From Chloroflexota bacterium (lineage in GTDB: Bacteria > Chloroflexota > Limnocylindria > Limnocylindrales > CSP1-4), in the NCBI GenBank assembly GCA_039933295.1, contig JBDTOJ010000202.1, positions 1-49,936 on the forward strand: a stretch of DNA of 49,936 bases. The letters are read 5' to 3'. The notes beneath the pieces were generated by a model. It ran no database searches. It saw only the letters and a program-made list of their open reading frames with translations, and had not been told where the DNA came from. Below, one piece after another: positions 15,620 to 46,312 of the stretch (position 1 is its first letter; every line of letters begins with the position of its first letter). A program made the position numbers and the translations under genes.

Positions 15620-15722
15620 CTCACGAGTATGCAGCGGCCGGGGTAGGGACCCTCTGGTATTCTTCGCCCGGCACGTGGCCTTCGGGCCCGGCGCGGCGGT
15701 CGCCTCGGCGGCCCCAATCGGT

Positions 15723-15796
15723 CCGGCGTAGCTCAGTGGTAGAGCGGGCGACTGTTAATCGCTTGGTCGTAAGTTCGAATCTTACCGCCGGAGCCA
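15723..15796 (+). tRNA. tRNA-Asn (GTT)
   Basis: Acceptor stem TCCGGCG/CGCCGGA, anticodon arm GGCGA-CTGTTAA-TCGCT, T-loop TTCGAAT, encoded CCA. Confidence 0.97.
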
Positions 15797-29397: not shown

Positions 29398-30411
29398 TCA
29401 GGAGTCGGAGACGTCTCCGCTCCGGACCATCGCGATCACGTTCTCCAACTTGAGCTTCGTGATCGTCAGGTACTTGGCTAGGTTCGCCCGATCGATGGCG
29501 CCAATGGCTGCCACCACGTCCGGAGCGCGGAGGACGTCCACGAGGTCTTCGACCGCATCCGCAAGGTGCTGTTTCGCGGTAATGAGTGAGTCATCGTTGA
29601 GCGGGGCGGACTCCGCCCGTCGGCCGGTCCACGCAGCGGCCGCGTCCTCGACCATGGCCTCGGACGCCGGCGCGTCCTCGGTCGCTCGCCCGGGAGCCTC
29701 CGCGGTCGACGGTCGCCGACCATCGATCTTGTCGCGGAGCTTCTGAAGGGTCAGCTCACCGCGGGCGACCTGCTGGCCCAATCGCTTGCGCTTCTTGGGA
29801 TCCTCGACCTTCATCAGCTCGTAGGCATGGGACAGCGTGTCTTTGCGCAAGGACACCAGCTCCCGAACGTCGTCCGGGGCACCCGCCAGGCGGAGCCGAT
29901 TCTCGAGGTAGCCCTTGTCCTTGCCCAGCTTCTGGGCGAGCTTCCGGACTGAGTACCCATGTTCGTGAACCATGCGGTCGAACATCGCGGCCTCATCGAG
30001 CGGGGAGAGGTCCTCGCGCTGGAGGTTCTCGATGATCGAGATCTCCAGGGCCGTGTCGTCGTCGATGTCCTCGACGAGCGCGGGGATCGTGTCGAGACCG
30101 GCGGCCTTCGAGGCGCGCCAGCGCCGCTCGCCCGCAATCAGCTGGTACTCGTTGTTGCCGCGCGGCCGGACCAGGATCGGCTGGAGGACCCCATGTTCGC
30201 GGATCGACGCCGATAGTTCTGCGAGTGCCGCAGGATCCATCGCGAGTCGCGGCTGGTCGGCGTTCGGGGAAATCTGGTCAACCGGAATCACGCGCACGCC
30301 CGATGAGTGGCCGATGCGATCCTGCGAGAGCAGGCTCAGGATGGCGGGGGAGAGCTCTCGCTCCTCCGAAAGGCGACGCGCCGCAACGGCGCGGAAATCG
30401 GTTCTAGCCAA
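29398..30411 (-). CDS. parB: ParB/Spo0J chromosome partition protein
   Basis: QPR, LQPILVR, GERRWRA CTP-binding box, ENLQREDL, and HTH. GGAGG ribosome-binding site before TTG 30411. Confidence 0.94.
   Translation of the reverse strand: MARTDFRAVAARRLSEERELSPAILSLLSQDRIGHSSGVRVIPVDQISPNADQPRLAMDPAALAELSASIREHGVLQPILVRPRGNNEYQLIAGERRWRASKAAGLDTIPALVEDIDDDTALEISIIENLQREDLSPLDEAAMFDRMVHEHGYSVRKLAQKLGKDKGYLENRLRLAGAPDDVRELVSLRKDTLSHAYELMKVEDPKKRKRLGQQVARGELTLQKLRDKIDGRRPSTAEAPGRATEDAPASEAMVEDAAAAWTGRRAESAPLNDDSLITAKQHLADAVEDLVDVLRAPDVVAAIGAIDRANLAKYLTITKLKLENVIAMVRSGDVSDS
29839..29854. repeat. 16-bp palindrome copy 1 (GTCTTTGCGCAAGGAC), candidate parS
   Basis: One mismatch from GTCTTTGCGCAAAGAC. 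Lies inside parB. Confidence 0.7.
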
Positions 30412-31168
30412 GGTCAATGACCTCCCGGGCAAGCTCGCGATACGTCCGTGCTGCGTCGGTGTAACCCGCGTAGCTGGTAATCGGGCGGCCCGCAAGCGGT
30501 GCCTCGCCGAGCTTGACGGTGTTCCGGATGATCGATGCGAATACGTGGTGATCGCCGACGGCGCGGAGTTCGTCGAGCATGTCCTTCGCGAGGTTCGTGC
30601 GCCCGTCGTAGAACGTTGGCAGAAGACCCAGGATTTTCAGCTTCCGGTTGAGCTTGAGGCGAATGGTGTTGATGACCTTGACCAGGTTGTTCAGGCCCTT
30701 CATCGCGTAGAACTGGGTCTGGACCGGGATGATCACCCCATCCGCGGCCACGAGCCCGTTGACGGTGAGCAGGCCGAGGTTGGGCGGACAATCGATCAGC
30801 GCATAGTCGTATCGATTCTTAAGCTTGCCCTCGAGAGCGTCACGCAGGATTCCTTCGCGTCCGAGCATCGTGAACAACTCACCCTCGGTAGCCGCGAGAT
30901 CGATGTGCGCCGGCACGACGTCGATGTGCTCGGTCTGCGTGGACACGATCACCTGATCGACCGTGGCGCGTCCGACGAGGACGTCGGCCATGGAGAGTTC
31001 GATGCTGTTGAGGTTGATGCCGAGACCCGCGGTGAGATTCGCCTGCGGATCCATGTCGATGCACAGGACCCGGAAATTCTCCTCCGCCAGCGCGCCCGCC
31101 AGATTGATCGTCGTCGTCGTCTTGCCGACGCCGCCCTTCTGGTTCGCAATTGCAATTACGTTGGTCAC
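30404..31168 (-). CDS. parA: ParA/Soj ATPase
   Basis: ANQKGGVGKTTT, DMDPQAN, IDCPPNLG and IPVQ. GAGGTG ribosome-binding site before GTG 31168. Confidence 0.95.
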   Translation of the reverse strand: MTNVIAIANQKGGVGKTTTTINLAGALAEENFRVLCIDMDPQANLTAGLGINLNSIELSMADVLVGRATVDQVIVSTQTEHIDVVPAHIDLAATEGELFTMLGREGILRDALEGKLKNRYDYALIDCPPNLGLLTVNGLVAADGVIIPVQTQFYAMKGLNNLVKVINTIRLKLNRKLKILGLLPTFYDGRTNLAKDMLDELRAVGDHHVFASIIRNTVKLGEAPLAGRPITSYAGYTDAARTYRELAREVIDLG

Positions 31169-31287
31169 CGGAGAAACACCTCGGATGGGCGACAGGATGG
31201 AGCGCTGGCTGCGCATCGGTCGATCCGCAATGGTGGGGGAGCGACCGTCAAATCCTACTCCAGGCTGCCCGTTCTCTGGCAGGCGAC

Positions 31288-31329
31288 TTATCCACAGGTT
31301 GGGAGACTTGTGCACCGAAGTGTGGATTA
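31288..31329. promoter_or_regulatory. DnaA-box cluster upstream of parA
   Basis: Perfect TTATCCACA at 31288-31296, weak TTGTGCACC at 31308-31316, and inverted TGTGGATTA at 31321-31329. Confidence 0.65.
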
Positions 31330-31448
31330 CCGAGATGGTGTGTTGACGCCCGAGTACGGGCGTTTCAGGCTCGTTGGCCCCGAGAATCCGTGAGCTGCGT
31401 GGCGTGGTGTCTAGAATGAACGAGACCTCACCGATCCCGTGGAGCCGT

Positions 31449-31464
31449 GTCCTTGCGCAAAGAC
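31449..31464. repeat. 16-bp palindrome copy 2 (GTCCTTGCGCAAAGAC), candidate parS
   Basis: One mismatch from the perfect palindrome. Lies between parA and pccB. Confidence 0.7.
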
Positions 31465-31518
31465 GGCTACCTGTGGGCCGATCGCAGCGATATCGACGAG
31501 CCGAATTGGAGACGAAGC

Positions 31519-33072
31519 GTGCCATCGAATGCAGAGCGTCTGAACCGACTCGCCGAGATGCGCGCTGAATCCGTGACGGGCGGCGGCCAGGCGCGAATCG
31601 ATCGCCAACACGAGGCCGGAAAGCTGACCGCGCGCGAGCGGATCGATCTCCTGCTCGATGCTGGCTCGTTCGTCGAACTCGACGCGTTCGTGACATCTCG
31701 GTCTGCTGACGCCGGACCGGACCAGCCGCGCTATCTCGGTGATGGCGTCGTGACCGGGCACGGATCCGTTGACGGTCGATTGGTGTTTGTCTTCAGCCAG
31801 GACTTCACCGTATTCGGTGGGTCGCTGTCCGAGGCCTACGCCGAGAAGATCTGCAAAATCATGGATTTGGCGATGAATGTCGGCGCACCGATCATCGGCC
31901 TGAACGATTCGGGTGGGGCCCGGATCCAGGAGGGCGTCGTTTCCCTTGGCGGATATGCCGACATCTTTCTGCGGAACGTCATGGCATCGGGCGTAGTTCC
32001 CCAGATCTCTGTGATCATGGGCCCATGCGCCGGGGGAGCGGTCTATTCGCCGGCGATCACGGACTTCACCGTCATGGTCGATGGAACGAGCTACATGTTC
32101 GTGACCGGACCAAATGTGGTGAAGGCGGTGACACACGAAGAAGTGGACGCGGAGTCGCTCGGCGGTGCCTCGGTCCACACATCGCGGAGTGGCGTCGCCC
32201 ACCTGGCCGTAGCCGATGAGTCGGACGCGCTCGATACGGTGCGGCGGATACTGTCCCACCTCCCACAGAACAATCTGGAGACGACCGCTGCGGTTCCGAC
32301 GACAGACCCGTCGGATCGGATGGACGCCGCGCTCGACGTCGTCGTCCCCGACGATCCGCAGAAGCCGTACGACATGCATGACGTCATCGCCGGCGTCGTG
32401 GATGATCGCGAATTCCTCGAGATCCAGCCAGCATGGGCCCCGAACATCCTGGTCGGGTTTGCGCGACTCGGCGGGAGGAGCATTGGGATTGTTGCCCAGC
32501 AGCCATCGGTTCTCGCCGGGGCGCTCGACATCGATGCGTCGACCAAGGCGGCCCGATTCGTTCGCACCTGTGATTGCTTCAATATCCCGATCGTCTCATT
32601 TGTCGATGTCCCGGGGTTCCTGCCGGGTGTCGCCCAGGAGCACGGTGGAATTATCAAGCACGGGGCCAAGCTGCTGTACGCCTACTGCGAGGCCACCGTC
32701 CCCAAGGTCACGGTCATCACGCGCAAGGCGTATGGCGGCGCCTATGACGTCATGAGCAGCAAACACATCCGCGGCGACATGAACTTCGCGTGGCCCACCG
32801 CGGAGATCGCGGTCATGGGAGCGGAGGGTGCCGTCAACGTCATCTTCAAGGATGCGATTGCTGCTGCGAAGGACCCGGCGGCGGAACGAGTCCGGCTCAT
32901 CGCCGAGTACGAGCTGGAATTCGCCCACCCGTACATCGCCGCCGCCCGCGGTTACGTCGATGATGTCTTTCGGCCGTCAGAGACTCGCCCCCGACTCATT
33001 CGCGCTCTTGACATGCTGGCCAACAAGCGCGCCACGAATCCGCGGAAGAAGCATGGCAACATCCCGCTCTGA
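31519..33072 (+). CDS. pccB: Acyl-CoA (propionyl-CoA) carboxylase carboxyltransferase subunit
   Basis: [42 protein letters not shown] and KKHGNIPL. Alternative GTG start at 31447. Confidence 0.95.
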
Positions 33073-33087
33073 AGTCAGCACGGATCC

Positions 33088-33103
33088 GTCTTTGCGCAAA
33101 GAC
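33088..33103. repeat. 16-bp perfect palindrome copy 3 (GTCTTTGCGCAAAGAC), candidate parS
   Basis: Perfect inverted repeat overlapping the biotin carboxylase start. Confidence 0.7.
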
Positions 33104-34651
33104 GATCTGAGCACGCCGCCGTTTCGGCGTGTGCTGATTGCGAATCGAGGCGAGATCGCGGTCCGCATCATCCGGGCCTGTCGAGAGATGGGGATGCAAT
33201 CGGTGGCCGTCTACAGCGACGCAGATGCCACGGCCGCCCATGTCGAACTGGCCGATCTGGCGATTCGAATCGGCCCGGCGGCGCCCGCCGAGAGCTACCT
33301 GCGAATCGATCGGATTGTTCAGGCGGCGCTCGATACCGGATCCGATGCGGTCCATCCCGGCTACGGGTTCCTGTCCGAGCGGGCTGCGTTTGCGCGAGCG
33401 GTCATCGGCGCGGGCCTGGCCTTCGTCGGGCCCGACCCCGACACGATCGAAGCGATCGGGGACAAGTTGCAGGCGCGTCGACTCGCTCGGGACGTCGGGG
33501 TCCTGGCGGTGCCGGGGTCTCTCGAACCAGCGATGATCGAGCGCCCAGACCAGATTGCCGCGATCACGGCCGAGGCCGAGGCGATCGGGTTCCCGCTCCT
33601 GGTCAAGGCGGCGGCCGGCGGCGGTGGCCGCGGGATGCGGAGGGTCGCGACGATTCGCGAGCTGGTGGAGGCGCTGGCAGATGGTTCCCGCGAGGCAGCC
33701 TCTGCATTCGGCGATGGCGCCGTCTATCTCGAGCGTGAGGTTCGTCCAGCTCGGCATGTCGAAGTCCAACTCCTCGGTGACGTCAGCGGTCATGTCGTTG
33801 CGATCGGGGAGCGGGATTGCTCCCTTCAACGGCGCCACCAGAAGCTCGTCGAGGAAGCCCCAGCTCCCGGACTGACCGGCGCTGATCGCGAACGCCTCCA
33901 CGAGTTGGCTGTGCGGGTCGCACGCGCGGCAGGCCTCAAGAACGCCGCGACGGCCGAGTTCCTACTTGGCCCCGATGGGTCGTTCTACTTCCTGGAGGTC
34001 AATACCCGCCTGCAGGTGGAGCACGGGGTCACCGAACTCGTCTCCGGCCTGGACATCGTCCGGGAGCAATTCCACCTCGCGGCTGGGTTTTCCCTGTCGG
34101 CTGCAGCGATGGAGGCCGCCGCTCGAGCGACAGATCCTCGTGGCCATGCAATCGAGGTCCGCGTGAGCGCTGAGGACCCCGGTCGGGACTTCGCTCCGAC
34201 ACCTGGCCGTTTGACGGGCTGGGCCATGCCGAGCGGTCCGGGCGTCCGCGTTGACACTGCACTCGTTGCGGGCGATGAAGTTCCGGCAGCGTACGACAAC
34301 CTCATGGCCAAGATCATGGTCCACGCCGGGACGCGCGACGAGGCCATTGATCGATTGCGGCGTGCTCTCGATGAGACCGAGATCGGCGGGATCCAGACGA
34401 CCCTGCCGTTCCATCGCTTCGTCGCCCGGGATCCCTCGTTTCGGACCGGCTCGGTCCACACCGAGTGGGTCGGCGAGCATTGGGACGGTGCTGGGGAGTT
34501 CAAGCGTGCGGCCGGACTGGCGATGCTCGCGGCCGGGCTCGGTGTAGTCGGACGGCCCGGCGCGGCAGCGAGCCCTGGACGGGCCGCCGATTCGCTCGGC
34601 GACTGGCGCGCCGCAGCTCTCGAGGACGGTGTCGATCGGTGGCCACGTTGA
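33092..34651 (+). CDS. accC: Biotin carboxylase subunit
   Basis: VLIANRGEIA, HPGYGFLSE, GGGGRGMR, RDCSLQRRHQK and EVNTRLQVEH. TTG start inferred. Confidence 0.94.
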   Translation: MRKDDLSTPPFRRVLIANRGEIAVRIIRACREMGMQSVAVYSDADATAAHVELADLAIRIGPAAPAESYLRIDRIVQAALDTGSDAVHPGYGFLSERAAFARAVIGAGLAFVGPDPDTIEAIGDKLQARRLARDVGVLAVPGSLEPAMIERPDQIAAITAEAEAIGFPLLVKAAAGGGGRGMRRVATIRELVEALADGSREAASAFGDGAVYLEREVRPARHVEVQLLGDVSGHVVAIGERDCSLQRRHQKLVEEAPAPGLTGADRERLHELAVRVARAAGLKNAATAEFLLGPDGSFYFLEVNTRLQVEHGVTELVSGLDIVREQFHLAAGFSLSAAAMEAAARATDPRGHAIEVRVSAEDPGRDFAPTPGRLTGWAMPSGPGVRVDTALVAGDEVPAAYDNLMAKIMVHAGTRDEAIDRLRRALDETEIGGIQTTLPFHRFVARDPSFRTGSVHTEWVGEHWDGAGEFKRAAGLAMLAAGLGVVGRPGAAASPGRAADSLGDWRAAALEDGVDRWPR

Positions 34652-35250
34652 CCGCCGAGCGACGCACTGAACGCGGACCCGGAGTGGGGGAACCAGACCG
34701 GGCAGTACGCGCGAGCCTCGCGCCAGCGTCTGCCAGTGCCGGCCTCGACGCGGTCAACGTCGATATCGGCGCGGATCCGGGAGTCATCGTGGTCGACGGA
34801 TCGACTAGCCCGACCACCTTCCGTCGTCTCGACCCGGAGCGATCTGAGCTCAGCACCCGAGGCTCGATCGTCCGCGTTCGTGACCGCGCCTCGCCGACGC
34901 AGCCCCGGGACTCAGGCACTGTACGACGGGAAGTCCTGATTGACGGCTGGCGCGTCGTTGTCGACCTGGAGCCTGCCGCGCGTGCAGCACTTCGTGAACG
35001 AGCGCGACGGGGCCGGGCCACGGGGACAACCGGTGGCCCCGCCGAAGTCCGTGCCATGATTCCGGGCGTCGTCGTCGCCGTGCCCGTCGCCGCGGGTGAT
35101 AGGGTCAGCGCTGGACAGAAGCTCGTGATCGTCGAAGCCATGAAGATGCAGAACGAGCTCCTCGCGCCCCGCGATGGGGTCATCGATCGATTGAACGTGG
35201 TCACCGGCGAGAGGATCGAGGTGGGTGACGTCCTCCTCGTGATCAGCTGA
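34648..35250 (+). CDS. accB: Biotin carboxyl carrier protein with N-terminal extension
   Basis: EAMKMQNE biotinylation motif. TTGA overlap start. Confidence 0.88.
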   Translation: MTAERRTERGPGVGEPDRAVRASLAPASASAGLDAVNVDIGADPGVIVVDGSTSPTTFRRLDPERSELSTRGSIVRVRDRASPTQPRDSGTVRREVLIDGWRVVVDLEPAARAALRERARRGRATGTTGGPAEVRAMIPGVVVAVPVAAGDRVSAGQKLVIVEAMKMQNELLAPRDGVIDRLNVVTGERIEVGDVLLVIS

Positions 35251-35265
35251 TAGCAGGGAGGGTGT

Positions 35266-36930
35266 GTGGCCGAGGGACAGGATCCAGAGAGGGACCGCTG
35301 GCGTAGCGATGCGCGAGCTCGTTCGCTCAAGGGAGCGACCGAGCGTCGGGACGGCTTCGAGACGTCATCCGGCCTTGAGATCCGGGACCTGTATACCCCG
35401 GCTGACCTCGCCGACCTGGACGAGGATCGCGACCTCGGGCGCCCCGGTGAATTCCCGTTCACCCGCGGCGTCCAGCCAACGATGTATCGGAGCCGATTCT
35501 GGACGATGCGCCAATACGCGGGCTTCGCGACGGCCGCCGAGACCAACGCCCGGTTCCGGTACCTCCTCGAACAGGGCCAAACCGGCCTGTCCGTCGCGTT
35601 CGACCTGCCGACCCAGATGGGCTTCGATTCGGACGCACCCGAGGCAGCGGGGGAGGTCGGCCGGGTCGGCGTCCCGATCGCGAGCCTGGCCGACATGGAG
35701 GTGCTGTTCGATCAGATCCCGCTCGGACAGGTCTCGACCTCGATGACGATCAACGCCACAGCCGCGACGCTCGTCGCGCTCTACGTCGTGGCCGCCGAAC
35801 GGCAGGGCGTCGCGCGCGACCAATTGTCCGGTACGGTCCAGAACGACATCCTCAAGGAATATGTTGCACGCGGGACGTGGATCTATCCGCCAGGCCCCTC
35901 GATGCGCCTCGTGACAGACATCTTTGAGTTCGGGGCGCGCGAGCTGCCGAAGTGGAACACCATCTCGATCAGTGGCTATCACATGCGCGAGGCGGGGGCG
36001 ACGGCCGCGCAGGAGCTGGCGTTCACCCTTGCGGATGCCATCGCCTATGTGGACGCGGCGCTTGCGCGCGGCCTGGCGATCGACGACTTCGCGCCCCGGC
36101 TCAGCTTCTTCTTCGCCGCGTGGTCCGAGTTGTTCGAGGAGGTCGCCAAGTTTCGAGCCGCGCGTCGGATGTGGGCGACGATCGTCCGGGATCGGTTCAG
36201 GGCCCAGAACCCGCGCTCGATGGCCTGCCGGTTCCACGTCCAGACGGCGGGAAGCTCGCTGACTGCCCAATCCGTCGATAACAACGTGGTTCGCACCACG
36301 CTCCAGGCGCTCGCGGCCGTCCTTGGAGGCGCCCAGAGCCTGCACACGAACTCGCGTGACGAGGCACTCGCGCTACCGACCGAGGAATCCGTGCGTCTCG
36401 CCCTACGAACACAGCAGATCATCGCGCACGAGACCGGCGTGGCCGAGACGCCGGACCCCTTGGGCGGATCGTGGTTCGTGGAGTCGCTGACGAACGATCT
36501 CGAGGCGGCGGCGTATGCCTATCTCGCCGAGATCGACGCGATGGGCGGAACGCTTGCCGCACTCGACGCGGGATTCCAGCAGCGCCAGATCCAGGAATCG
36601 GCCTATCGGACGCAACGAAACGTAGATGCCGGCACGCAGGTGGTGGTCGGCGTCAATCGGTTCCGGGACGAGGCGACGACCACGCCACCGACGCAACGGA
36701 TCGATCCGGAGGGGGAGCGGCGTCAGGTCGAGGGACTTCGACGCGTCCGCGCCGAACGAGATCCCGCGGCCTGGGAGGCGGCGATGCGCCGACTCGACGA
36801 CGCGGCTCGCGGTTCGGAAAACCTCATGCCGCCGATCATCGATGCCGTCCGGGCCTACGCGACGGTCGGGGAGATCGCCGACCACCTCCGAGCCACGTGG
36901 GGCGTCCACCGCGAACTGATCACCGTTTGA
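35266..36930 (+). CDS. Methylmalonyl-CoA mutase, N-terminal (substrate-binding) subunit
   Basis: [29 protein letters not shown] and HTNSRDEAL. No B12-binding domain. Confidence 0.94.
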
Positions 36931-45959: not shown

Positions 45960-46312
45960 CCAGCGAGGCGAACGGATGGTCGCGCGTCGCCGGGGAAACC
46001 CGGAGGGCGTGAGGAAAGTCCGAGCTCCACAACGCAGGGTAGCGGGTAACGCCCGCCCGCCGTGAGGCGAGGACCAGCGCCACAGTGACGATGCCGGCGG
46101 TTTCGACCGACGGAGTGAAACGCGGCAAGCTCTACCCGGAGCAAGGCCAAATAGGAGGGCGTAACCCGGCTTGCCGGGGGAGAGGCGCGTTGCCCAGCTC
46201 TCGGGTCGGCTGCACGAGCCGACGGGTAACCGTCGGCCTCAGATGGATGGCCATCTCCGTGATCGCTTCGGTGGTCGCGGAACAGAACTCGGCTTACAGG
46301 TCGCCTCGCTGG
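45960..46312 (+). ncRNA. rnpB: RNase P RNA (type A)
   Basis: GAGGAAAGTCC, GTGAAACG, GAGCAAG and ACAGAACTCGGCTTAC conserved regions. P1 pairing CCAGCGAGGCGA/TCGCCTCGCTGG. TAGAAT -10 at 45947. Confidence 0.97.

Follow-up and report, generated by a model that had tools for sequence, protein, structure and literature searches.

A second ParAB locus in Limnocylindria with clustered 18-bp palindromes as putative binding sites of its own ParB

The 49,936-nt stretch of DNA analyzed here (hereafter the window; contig JBDTOJ010000202.1 of assembly GCA_039933295.1, from a Chloroflexota bacterium of the class Limnocylindria) encodes a ParA/ParB pair next to genes for the conversion of propionate to succinate, and this locus contains three copies of a palindrome that are the subject of this report. 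The ParB gene, parB2 (29398..30405, minus strand), encodes a 335-aa paralogue of the ParB-family CTPases and has a TTG start codon that overlaps the stop codon of parA2 (30404..31168, minus strand), which in turn encodes a Soj-type Walker ATPase of ~255 aa with the motif KGGVGKT, its start being inferred by aligning relatives. Running divergently from parA2 are pccB (31519..33072, plus strand), which encodes the carboxyltransferase subunit of propionyl-CoA carboxylase, and then an accC-like biotin carboxylase, a biotin carboxyl carrier protein (BCCP, bccp) and methylmalonyl-CoA mutase (mcm; together 33055..36930, plus strand), with methylmalonyl-CoA epimerase and sucCD coming next. Pfam assigned the corresponding domains to these proteins (ParB_N with HTH_ParB, ParA, carboxyltransferase, biotin carboxylase, BCCP and methylmalonyl-CoA mutase), in agreement with the parB, parA, pccB and accC identities proposed in an earlier reading of the DNA letters (hereafter the original prediction). 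Within ~8 kb of the palindromes, no other gene for a DNA-binding protein or transcription factor was found.

The original prediction had placed three copies of the 16-bp palindrome GTCTTTGCGCAAAGAC around parAB and none elsewhere in the window, and an exact scan reproduced its positions and mismatch counts. At ≤2 mismatches, exactly three matches were found in the window, at 29839-29854 (GTCTTTGCGCAAGGAC, 1 mismatch), 31449-31464 (GTCCTTGCGCAAAGAC, 1 mismatch) and 33088-33103 (a perfect match). The 205 contigs of the 2.55-Mb draft assembly contained no other match at this threshold, and 100 dinucleotide-preserving shuffles of the window yielded 0 matches. The 16-bp extent turned out to describe the core only, since the 324 distinct site contexts that we compiled from relatives gave a full motif of 18 bp, YGTCYTTGCGCAARGACR, with outer flanks of the form Y...R, the 5′ flanking base being T in 67% of contexts, C in 33%, and never A or G. 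Including these flanks, site 1 (TGTCTTTGCGCAAGGACA, 29838..29855) lies inside parB2, site 2 (TGTCCTTGCGCAAAGACG, 31448..31465) lies between parA2 and pccB, 54 nt upstream of the latter's start, and site 3 (CGTCTTTGCGCAAAGACG, 33087..33104), a perfect 18-bp palindrome, follows the pccB stop by 15 nt and precedes accC or lies at its 5′ end. None of the three sites coincided with an Rfam family or with a promoter or terminator call, and none had a U-tract. Canonical parS was not found in the window at ≤3 mismatches, nor was the Noc-binding site (NBS) found at ≤3 mismatches in a scan of the genome.

Because site 1 lies within a coding region, its codons could be compared with background usage. On the minus strand this site reads GTG TCC TTG CGC AAA GAC AC(G), a stretch of the ParB2 DNA-binding domain translated as V S L R K D T. 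In 72 distinct genes that specify VSLRKD, the Leu codon was TTG in 67 (93%), the Lys codon AAA in 58 (81%), the Ser codon TCY in 70 and the Val codon GTG in 72, as compared with background frequencies of 4.9% for TTG, 6.9% for AAA, 23% for TCY and 32% for GTG, which we pooled from four conserved genes at loci of 62–74% G+C. This use of rare codons therefore indicates that the palindrome is maintained as DNA, and is not a by-product of the protein sequence. The occurrence of ‘SLRKD’ in frame at all three copies was discounted as a coincidence of the palindrome; across 101 loci, the frame in which site 2 lies with respect to pccB was random (37/32/32).

We then compared the locus among relatives. 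All 24 congeneric genomes contained 2–4 sites with the same spacing of ~1.6 kb, and the gene order ubiA–parB2–parA2<>pccB–X–bccp–mcm was kept across 20 loci of the genus as well as in other genera of the family. Across the 32 genera sampled from family f1, sites were located within parB2, between parA2 and pccB, and directly past the pccB stop, with additional sites before bccp or after mcm in some genomes, and a second order (f3), in which ParB2 is only ~55% identical, displayed the same site sequence at the same three positions. Of 109 related intergenic regions, 103 had an equivalent of site 2 (≤3 mismatches), 10–164 nt from pccB, and 96 of the 101 loci with a scorable best site had an equivalent of site 3 (≤3 mismatches), which was perfect in 67. 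By k-mer counts, the sites formed islands of conservation within otherwise diverged spacers. A scan of the genome and its relatives at ≤2 mismatches, which the original prediction had proposed, showed that the sites cluster at the parAB2 locus, genus g24 excepted: ~40 genomes of family f1 and order f3 that were scanned whole had 2–6 sites each, all of them in the parAB2 locus except in g24. These scans covered 14 f1 genomes beyond the congeneric set and 2 genomes of f3, among which only part of genus g24 had sites outside the locus. The embedded site array may itself explain the stable synteny of the locus.

Several lineages departed from this arrangement. In genus g24 (G136, G142, G173 and G176; loci L061, L062 and L157–L169), the parB2-internal and spacer sites were lost, and the same genomes instead displayed 3–5 good sites dispersed over hundreds of kb, often directly past stop codons and with the T...A flanks kept. 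The genes beside these sites were unrelated to one another (an ilvB-like thiamine pyrophosphate (TPP) enzyme, a DHH phosphoesterase, trp genes and gpsA), and two placements recurred, namely directly after the ilvB-like gene and at the 5′ end of the DHH-family gene. Genus g6, genome G176 and Limnocylindrus were without pccB, and g6 retained sites both within parB2 and between parA2 and mcm despite this loss. In family f4, pccB (67–69% identity) was located on other contigs, away from parAB2, and had no site at ≤4 mismatches, while a single f4 site was found between the convergent ends of genes for an addA-like helicase-nuclease and an MFS transporter.

As judged from its sequence and modelled fold, ParB2 is a complete ParB. 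The GERRWRA and ENLQRE motifs are intact, with most of their residues invariant among 36 orthologues, and Pfam matches to ParB_N (6.9e-36) and HTH_ParB (4.3e-17) were obtained. Structures of Noc and ParB could be aligned to residues 35 to ~230, and Noc gave the best sequence match in PDB (3.8e-42). An AlphaFold2 model with a mean predicted local distance difference test score (pLDDT) of 77, and of 84–92 over residues 41–220 except for one block at 76, matched the Caulobacter ParB-parS complex 6T1F with a target template modelling (TM) score of 0.82 in Foldseek and Noc with a score of 0.75, and also matched 7NFU and 7BNK. In this model, a disordered linker (230–256) is followed by an all-helical C-terminal domain, and a Pfam search of ParB2 gave no match to ParB_C.

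The recognition helix of ParB2 (GKDKGYLENRLRL) is, on the evidence of its residues, re-specified. The pattern GKDKGY[LIV]ENR[LI]RL was present in 10 of 10 aligned members of the class (families f1–f4), and the helix of the canonical ParB of the same genome is GRARSTVANTLRL. Preference for parS or NBS is determined by positions 173, 179, 184 and 201, which are R, T, A and G in Caulobacter ParB and Q, K, K and R in Noc, with R173 invariant among parS-specific variants (PMC7383237). At these positions ParB2 of the window has K, R, G and S (184 is D in most relatives), and the genome's canonical ParB has R, T, D and G. The DNA-binding domains of ParB2 and its canonical paralogue could not be aligned beyond the recognition helix.

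ParA2, which is 45% identical to the canonical ParA of the same genome, and ParB2 look like a working pair, because their genes overlap and because a strongly conserved N-terminal peptide of ParB2, RxDFRxxAxxRLSEE (DFRAAAxxRL), was lost together with parA2. This peptide was absent exactly in the three Limnocylindrus genomes without parA2 (G025, G027 and G028; loci L037–L039), in which parB2 was kept beside mcm and ParB2 has a different N-terminus, MPKGKQP..., that does not contain DFRAAAxxRL.

The original prediction had taken parAB of the window to be the chromosome's own origin-proximal pair, acting on sites distinct from both parS and NBS. Comparative evidence gives good support to such a distinct site for the local ParB, whereas the chromosome proved to have a separate, canonical ParAB-parS system. 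A tblastn search of the assembly with ParA and ParB of the window identified a second parAB pair on contig C60, with gyrB after it and mreD-PBP2-rodA before it, and its ParB contains ParB_N, HTH_ParB and the ParB_C dimerisation domain. A perfect canonical parS (TGTTTCACGTGAAACA) was located at C60:11083, 210 nt upstream of this parA, and a further copy with 1 mismatch was located at C173:2475, such that the absence of canonical parS that had been reported holds for the window but not for the genome. All 201 sampled genomes of the order gave a ParB match, and by our own count from the resulting table, 188 of the 201 have two ParB genes. In the 11 relatives checked, canonical parS lay beside the second parAB, 29–54 kb from dnaA (the parAB pair itself lying 30–55 kb from dnaA), and the window-type gene ParB2 was located elsewhere on the same chromosome.

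The distance between ParB2 and dnaA, in genome lengths, was 0.396, 0.379, 0.367 and 0.401 in four single-contig genomes (G110, G118, G145 and G149, respectively), and ~0.40 in a near-closed genome (G204). In the single-contig genomes both parAB sets are on one chromosome, i.e., ParAB2 is not on a separate replicon. The sites are thus far from the origin, in contrast to the origin-proximal position of canonical chromosomal ParABS, and the clustering near the origin that the original prediction had named as a supporting observation was not found. In G110, the bias in gene orientation flipped near dnaA and at ~2.1–2.4 Mb, and the ParAB2 locus is at 1.98 Mb, with the caveat that origin and terminus placed from gene-orientation bias and dnaA position are coarse only. 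GC skew was dropped as a marker for origin and terminus, since 18 samples of 20 kb taken along the closed G110 genome (L172–L189) showed that it follows the coding strand and not replication; in the lineage of G110, the sense strand has more C than G and skew plots are unreliable for this purpose.

Among 401 genomes sampled from the phylum, only those of the class Limnocylindria encoded ParB2-type proteins (E-values of 1e-80 to 1e-212), and matches to ParB2 in other Chloroflexota reached only ~1e-46. The parAB pair of the window is a class-restricted paralogue and not the main chromosomal system.

The closest counterparts of the ParB2 DNA-binding domain were found on plasmids of Ca. Chlorohelix allophototropha. 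The ParB of plasmid NZ_CP128402 carries the helix GKDKSYIENRLAL, in which GKDKSYIENRL corresponds to GKDKGYLENRL of ParB2, and is 43% identical over ParB2 residues 37–227. Two perfect GTCTGTATATACAGAC palindromes with T...A flanks lie 37 and 121 nt past the stop codon of this parB (L190, 6796 and 6880). On the sister plasmid NZ_CP128401, whose ParB has GKARGYVENRLRL, three TGTTTTCGCGAAAACA sites surround parAB (L191, 3760, 5791 and 6713). The plasmid and Limnocylindria motifs have common outer arms (GTCTGT....ACAGAC and GTCTTT....AAAGAC), and when ParB2, the canonical ParB and the two plasmid ParBs were compared, K173 went with TGTC arms and R173 with TGTT arms. The plasmid palindromes vary in step with the recognition helix of their ParBs, and they lend independent support to the proposal that ParB2 reads the Limnocylindria motif. 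The plasmid system differs from ParAB2 in being plasmid-borne, in having the core ATAT in place of GCGC, and in having its two putative sites directly after parB. No plasmid ParB was >44% identical to ParB2, and we rejected a plasmid origin by direct similarity; only the DNA-binding domain would point to a Chloroflexota plasmid subfamily.

Taken as a whole, these observations make it probable that the palindromes serve ParB2 as cognate loading sites of the parS type, and ParB2 would belong to a second Limnocylindria ParABS orthogonal to the canonical one. That ParB2 binds these sites we regard as very likely, while a main role in positioning or segregation together with ParA2 is only slightly favoured. 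In the mechanism that we propose, ParB2 dimers would read the 18-bp palindrome through the re-specified helix-turn-helix and, with CTP bound in the GERRWRA/ENLQRE pocket, would close into clamps that spread outwards from the cluster of 3–6 sites to cover parAB2 and the pcc-mcm genes. ParA2 would then be engaged by the conserved peptide at the N-terminus of ParB2, and the chromosomal region, which lies ~135–145 degrees from the origin, would be positioned or segregated. More tentatively, such chromosomes might have two orthogonal CTP-switch centromeres, parS/ParAB at the origin and the 18-bp site with ParA2B2 ~140 degrees away, the latter positioning a terminus-proximal domain, while in some lineages ParB2 would be on the way to becoming an orphan of the Noc kind, its sites dispersed; we consider this extended model possible, and weaker than the proposal from which it derives.

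A number of points weigh against the proposal. The sites bracket pccB and the link to the propionate pathway is conserved, which would fit a regulatory role, and the plasmid parallel is based on two plasmids. We know of no described function for a non-origin ParABS beside a canonical system on one chromosome, and to our knowledge the class Limnocylindria has no cultured model. Furthermore, Limnocylindrus (family f2) and f4 keep the recognition helix, yet no site was found near parB2 in these genomes, which hold only 1–2 sites with two mismatches, located elsewhere. A search for another conserved palindrome near parB2 in Limnocylindrus found none. Evidently, ParB2 can work with few, distant or more degenerate sites. 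Since the helix is unchanged while sites are few or elsewhere in Limnocylindrus and f4, and dispersed in g24, the system has undergone repeated remodelling, in a manner reminiscent of Noc.

The main rival to a non-origin centromere, which remains our preferred reading, is that ParB2 binds the sites but has a mainly transcriptional job, as KorB does, silencing or tuning the divergent parA2B2 and pccB-accC-bccp-mcm operons. We consider this unlikely, although it accounts for several features of the locus, including the class-wide synteny with propionate-to-succinate genes, the bracketing of pccB by sites that in some genomes also precede bccp and follow mcm, and the location of site 2, which has the likely promoter region on one side and the pccB start on the other. 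KorB of RK2 is itself a ParB-family CTPase that acts with a ParA (IncC) on palindromes (OB) inside and between genes, and some Limnocylindrus genomes retain ParB2 without ParA2. However, the match of ParB2 to KorB was weak (3e-15 in PDB; 21.9 bits in Pfam, where the curated cut-off is 22.3 bits), and nothing resembling a KorA partner was seen. Site-promoter geometry is not conserved either, with the distance between the site and the pccB start varying over 10–164 nt. ParA2 and the ParA-linked N-terminal peptide are kept almost everywhere, the sites outlast the loss of pccB, f4 has pccB without sites, and the dispersed sites of g24 and f4 are past stop codons or between convergent genes.

Less probable still is the alternative offered in the original prediction, namely that the palindromes are operators, in this case of a separate regulator of propionyl-CoA/methylmalonyl-CoA metabolism (for example of the TetR or MerR type) encoded elsewhere. 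Palindromes of 16 bp are typical of dimeric regulators, and two of the three sites in the window are at the 5′ ends of pccB and accC. This explanation lost ground with the finding that no regulator gene lies within ~8 kb, that g6 has sites without pccB and f4 has pccB without a site, and that the additional g24 sites are beside unrelated genes. It also does not fit with the maintenance of the parB2-internal site by rare codons across two orders, or with the look-alike palindromes in centromere position beside a plasmid ParB with the same helix.

We give very little credence to the idea that Limnocylindria replaced the universal centromere, with ParAB2 as the sole or main ParABS. The window, with no canonical parS and a re-specified ParB2, would be compatible with such a replacement, but this is refuted for the genomes examined, as canonical parAB and parS are present in them: beside gyrB, the genome has a canonical parAB pair whose ParB contains ParB_C, together with a perfect parS, two ParB genes are the rule in the order (188 of 201), and canonical parS is near dnaA in the 11 relatives. 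Finally, a role of the palindrome as RNA (a hairpin for translation or stability) or as a neutral repeat element, which its frequent location directly past stop codons or in 5′ leaders might suggest, was rejected as highly improbable because site variants break stem pairs without compensation (GTCCTTGC..., GTCCGTGC...), because Rfam matches, terminator calls and U-tracts are lacking at the three sites, and because there are just 3 copies per genome, free in orientation, with one coding on the opposite strand.

Compared with known systems, ParAB2 resembles canonical ParABS in its components. ParB2 has the CTP-binding N-terminal domain, the helix-turn-helix fold and an adjacent Soj-type ParA, and parAB is surrounded by a small number of short palindromes, centred on CG with TGT...ACA further out, one of them in parB. 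It differs from the canonical systems of B. subtilis, Caulobacter, Thermus and Myxococcus, whose parS is the 16-bp TGTTTCACGTGAAACA, in having an 18-bp site with another core, a different helix with K/R/G/S instead of R/T/A/G at the specificity positions, a helical C-terminal domain without a ParB_C match, and a location 0.37–0.40 genome lengths from dnaA on a chromosome that also carries the canonical system. As in the Noc/NBS system of Firmicutes, a lineage-restricted ParB paralogue would have acquired a new specificity while the chromosome keeps ParB-parS; position 179 is a permissive basic residue in both (R in ParB2, K in Noc), and some lineages lose ParA2 or disperse their sites (some Limnocylindrus and g24, respectively). 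Unlike Noc, ParB2 normally has its own ParA, and its sites are clustered at one locus and not chromosome-wide.

The ParABS systems of secondary replicons (Burkholderiales Bsr, Vibrio chromosome 2 and the parS of repABC) likewise form an orthogonal pair beside a canonical system, although ParAB2 is on the same chromosome, at a locus among housekeeping genes that include RNase P RNA. Palindromic parS sites of 16 bp centred on CG are well known from secondary replicons, those of Bsr having a T-rich 5′ arm (PMC5450999). Our literature search yielded no publication on ParB in Limnocylindria and none that used wording such as ‘two ParABS systems’, and the passages of a review on chromosomal ParB that a term search returned name Noc as a paralogue and mention no second complete chromosomal ParABS.

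If ParB2 does bind these sites, then in an abundant uncultured class of soil and freshwater bacteria a single chromosome maintains two complete ParABS systems that differ in centromere code, the second of them far from the origin. This would constitute a natural experiment in the divergence of ParB specificity, parallel to that of ParB and Noc but with the ParA partner retained, in which the covariation of K173 with TGTC and of R173 with TGTT is visible. It would also raise the question of what role a non-origin centromere has in chromosome organisation, and would add a further orthogonal ParB/parS pair to the DNA-labelling toolkit.

Between parA2 and site 2, upstream of parA2, we also found an inverted pair of DnaA boxes (31288..31329, TTATCCACA-N24-TGTGGATTA). 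The TTATCCACA box was present in 94 of 109 related intergenic regions and two boxes were present in 86 of 122 related loci; the copy of TTATCCACA at parA2 is one of only 4 perfect DnaA boxes in the genome. The pair may couple parA2B2 to DnaA, tying expression or action of ParA2B2 to the replication cycle, or it may form part of the centromere, as is reportedly the case for DnaA boxes in the Caulobacter centromere. We rejected the possibility that the locus is a replication origin, as there are two boxes only and no switch in skew or gene orientation within the window. A denser DnaA-box array is located outside the window on contig C127, where a ~1-kb non-coding stretch (C127:6900-7400) contains two repeated modules rich in DnaA-box-like words (TTATCCACA, TCATCCACA, TTATCCACG and CGTCCACAG); this stretch is a candidate oriC.

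Among the remaining features of the window, the biotin carboxylase gene (33055-34651) shares only 38–46% identity with its positional counterpart in congeners, unlike pccB, parA2 and mcm, which are 75–94% identical among congeners, and it may represent a non-orthologous replacement inside a conserved operon. The window also encodes two ordinary housekeeping RNAs, a tRNA (15722-15793) and a class A RNase P RNA (45964-46312), and the presence of RNase P RNA at 45964 identifies the window as chromosomal.

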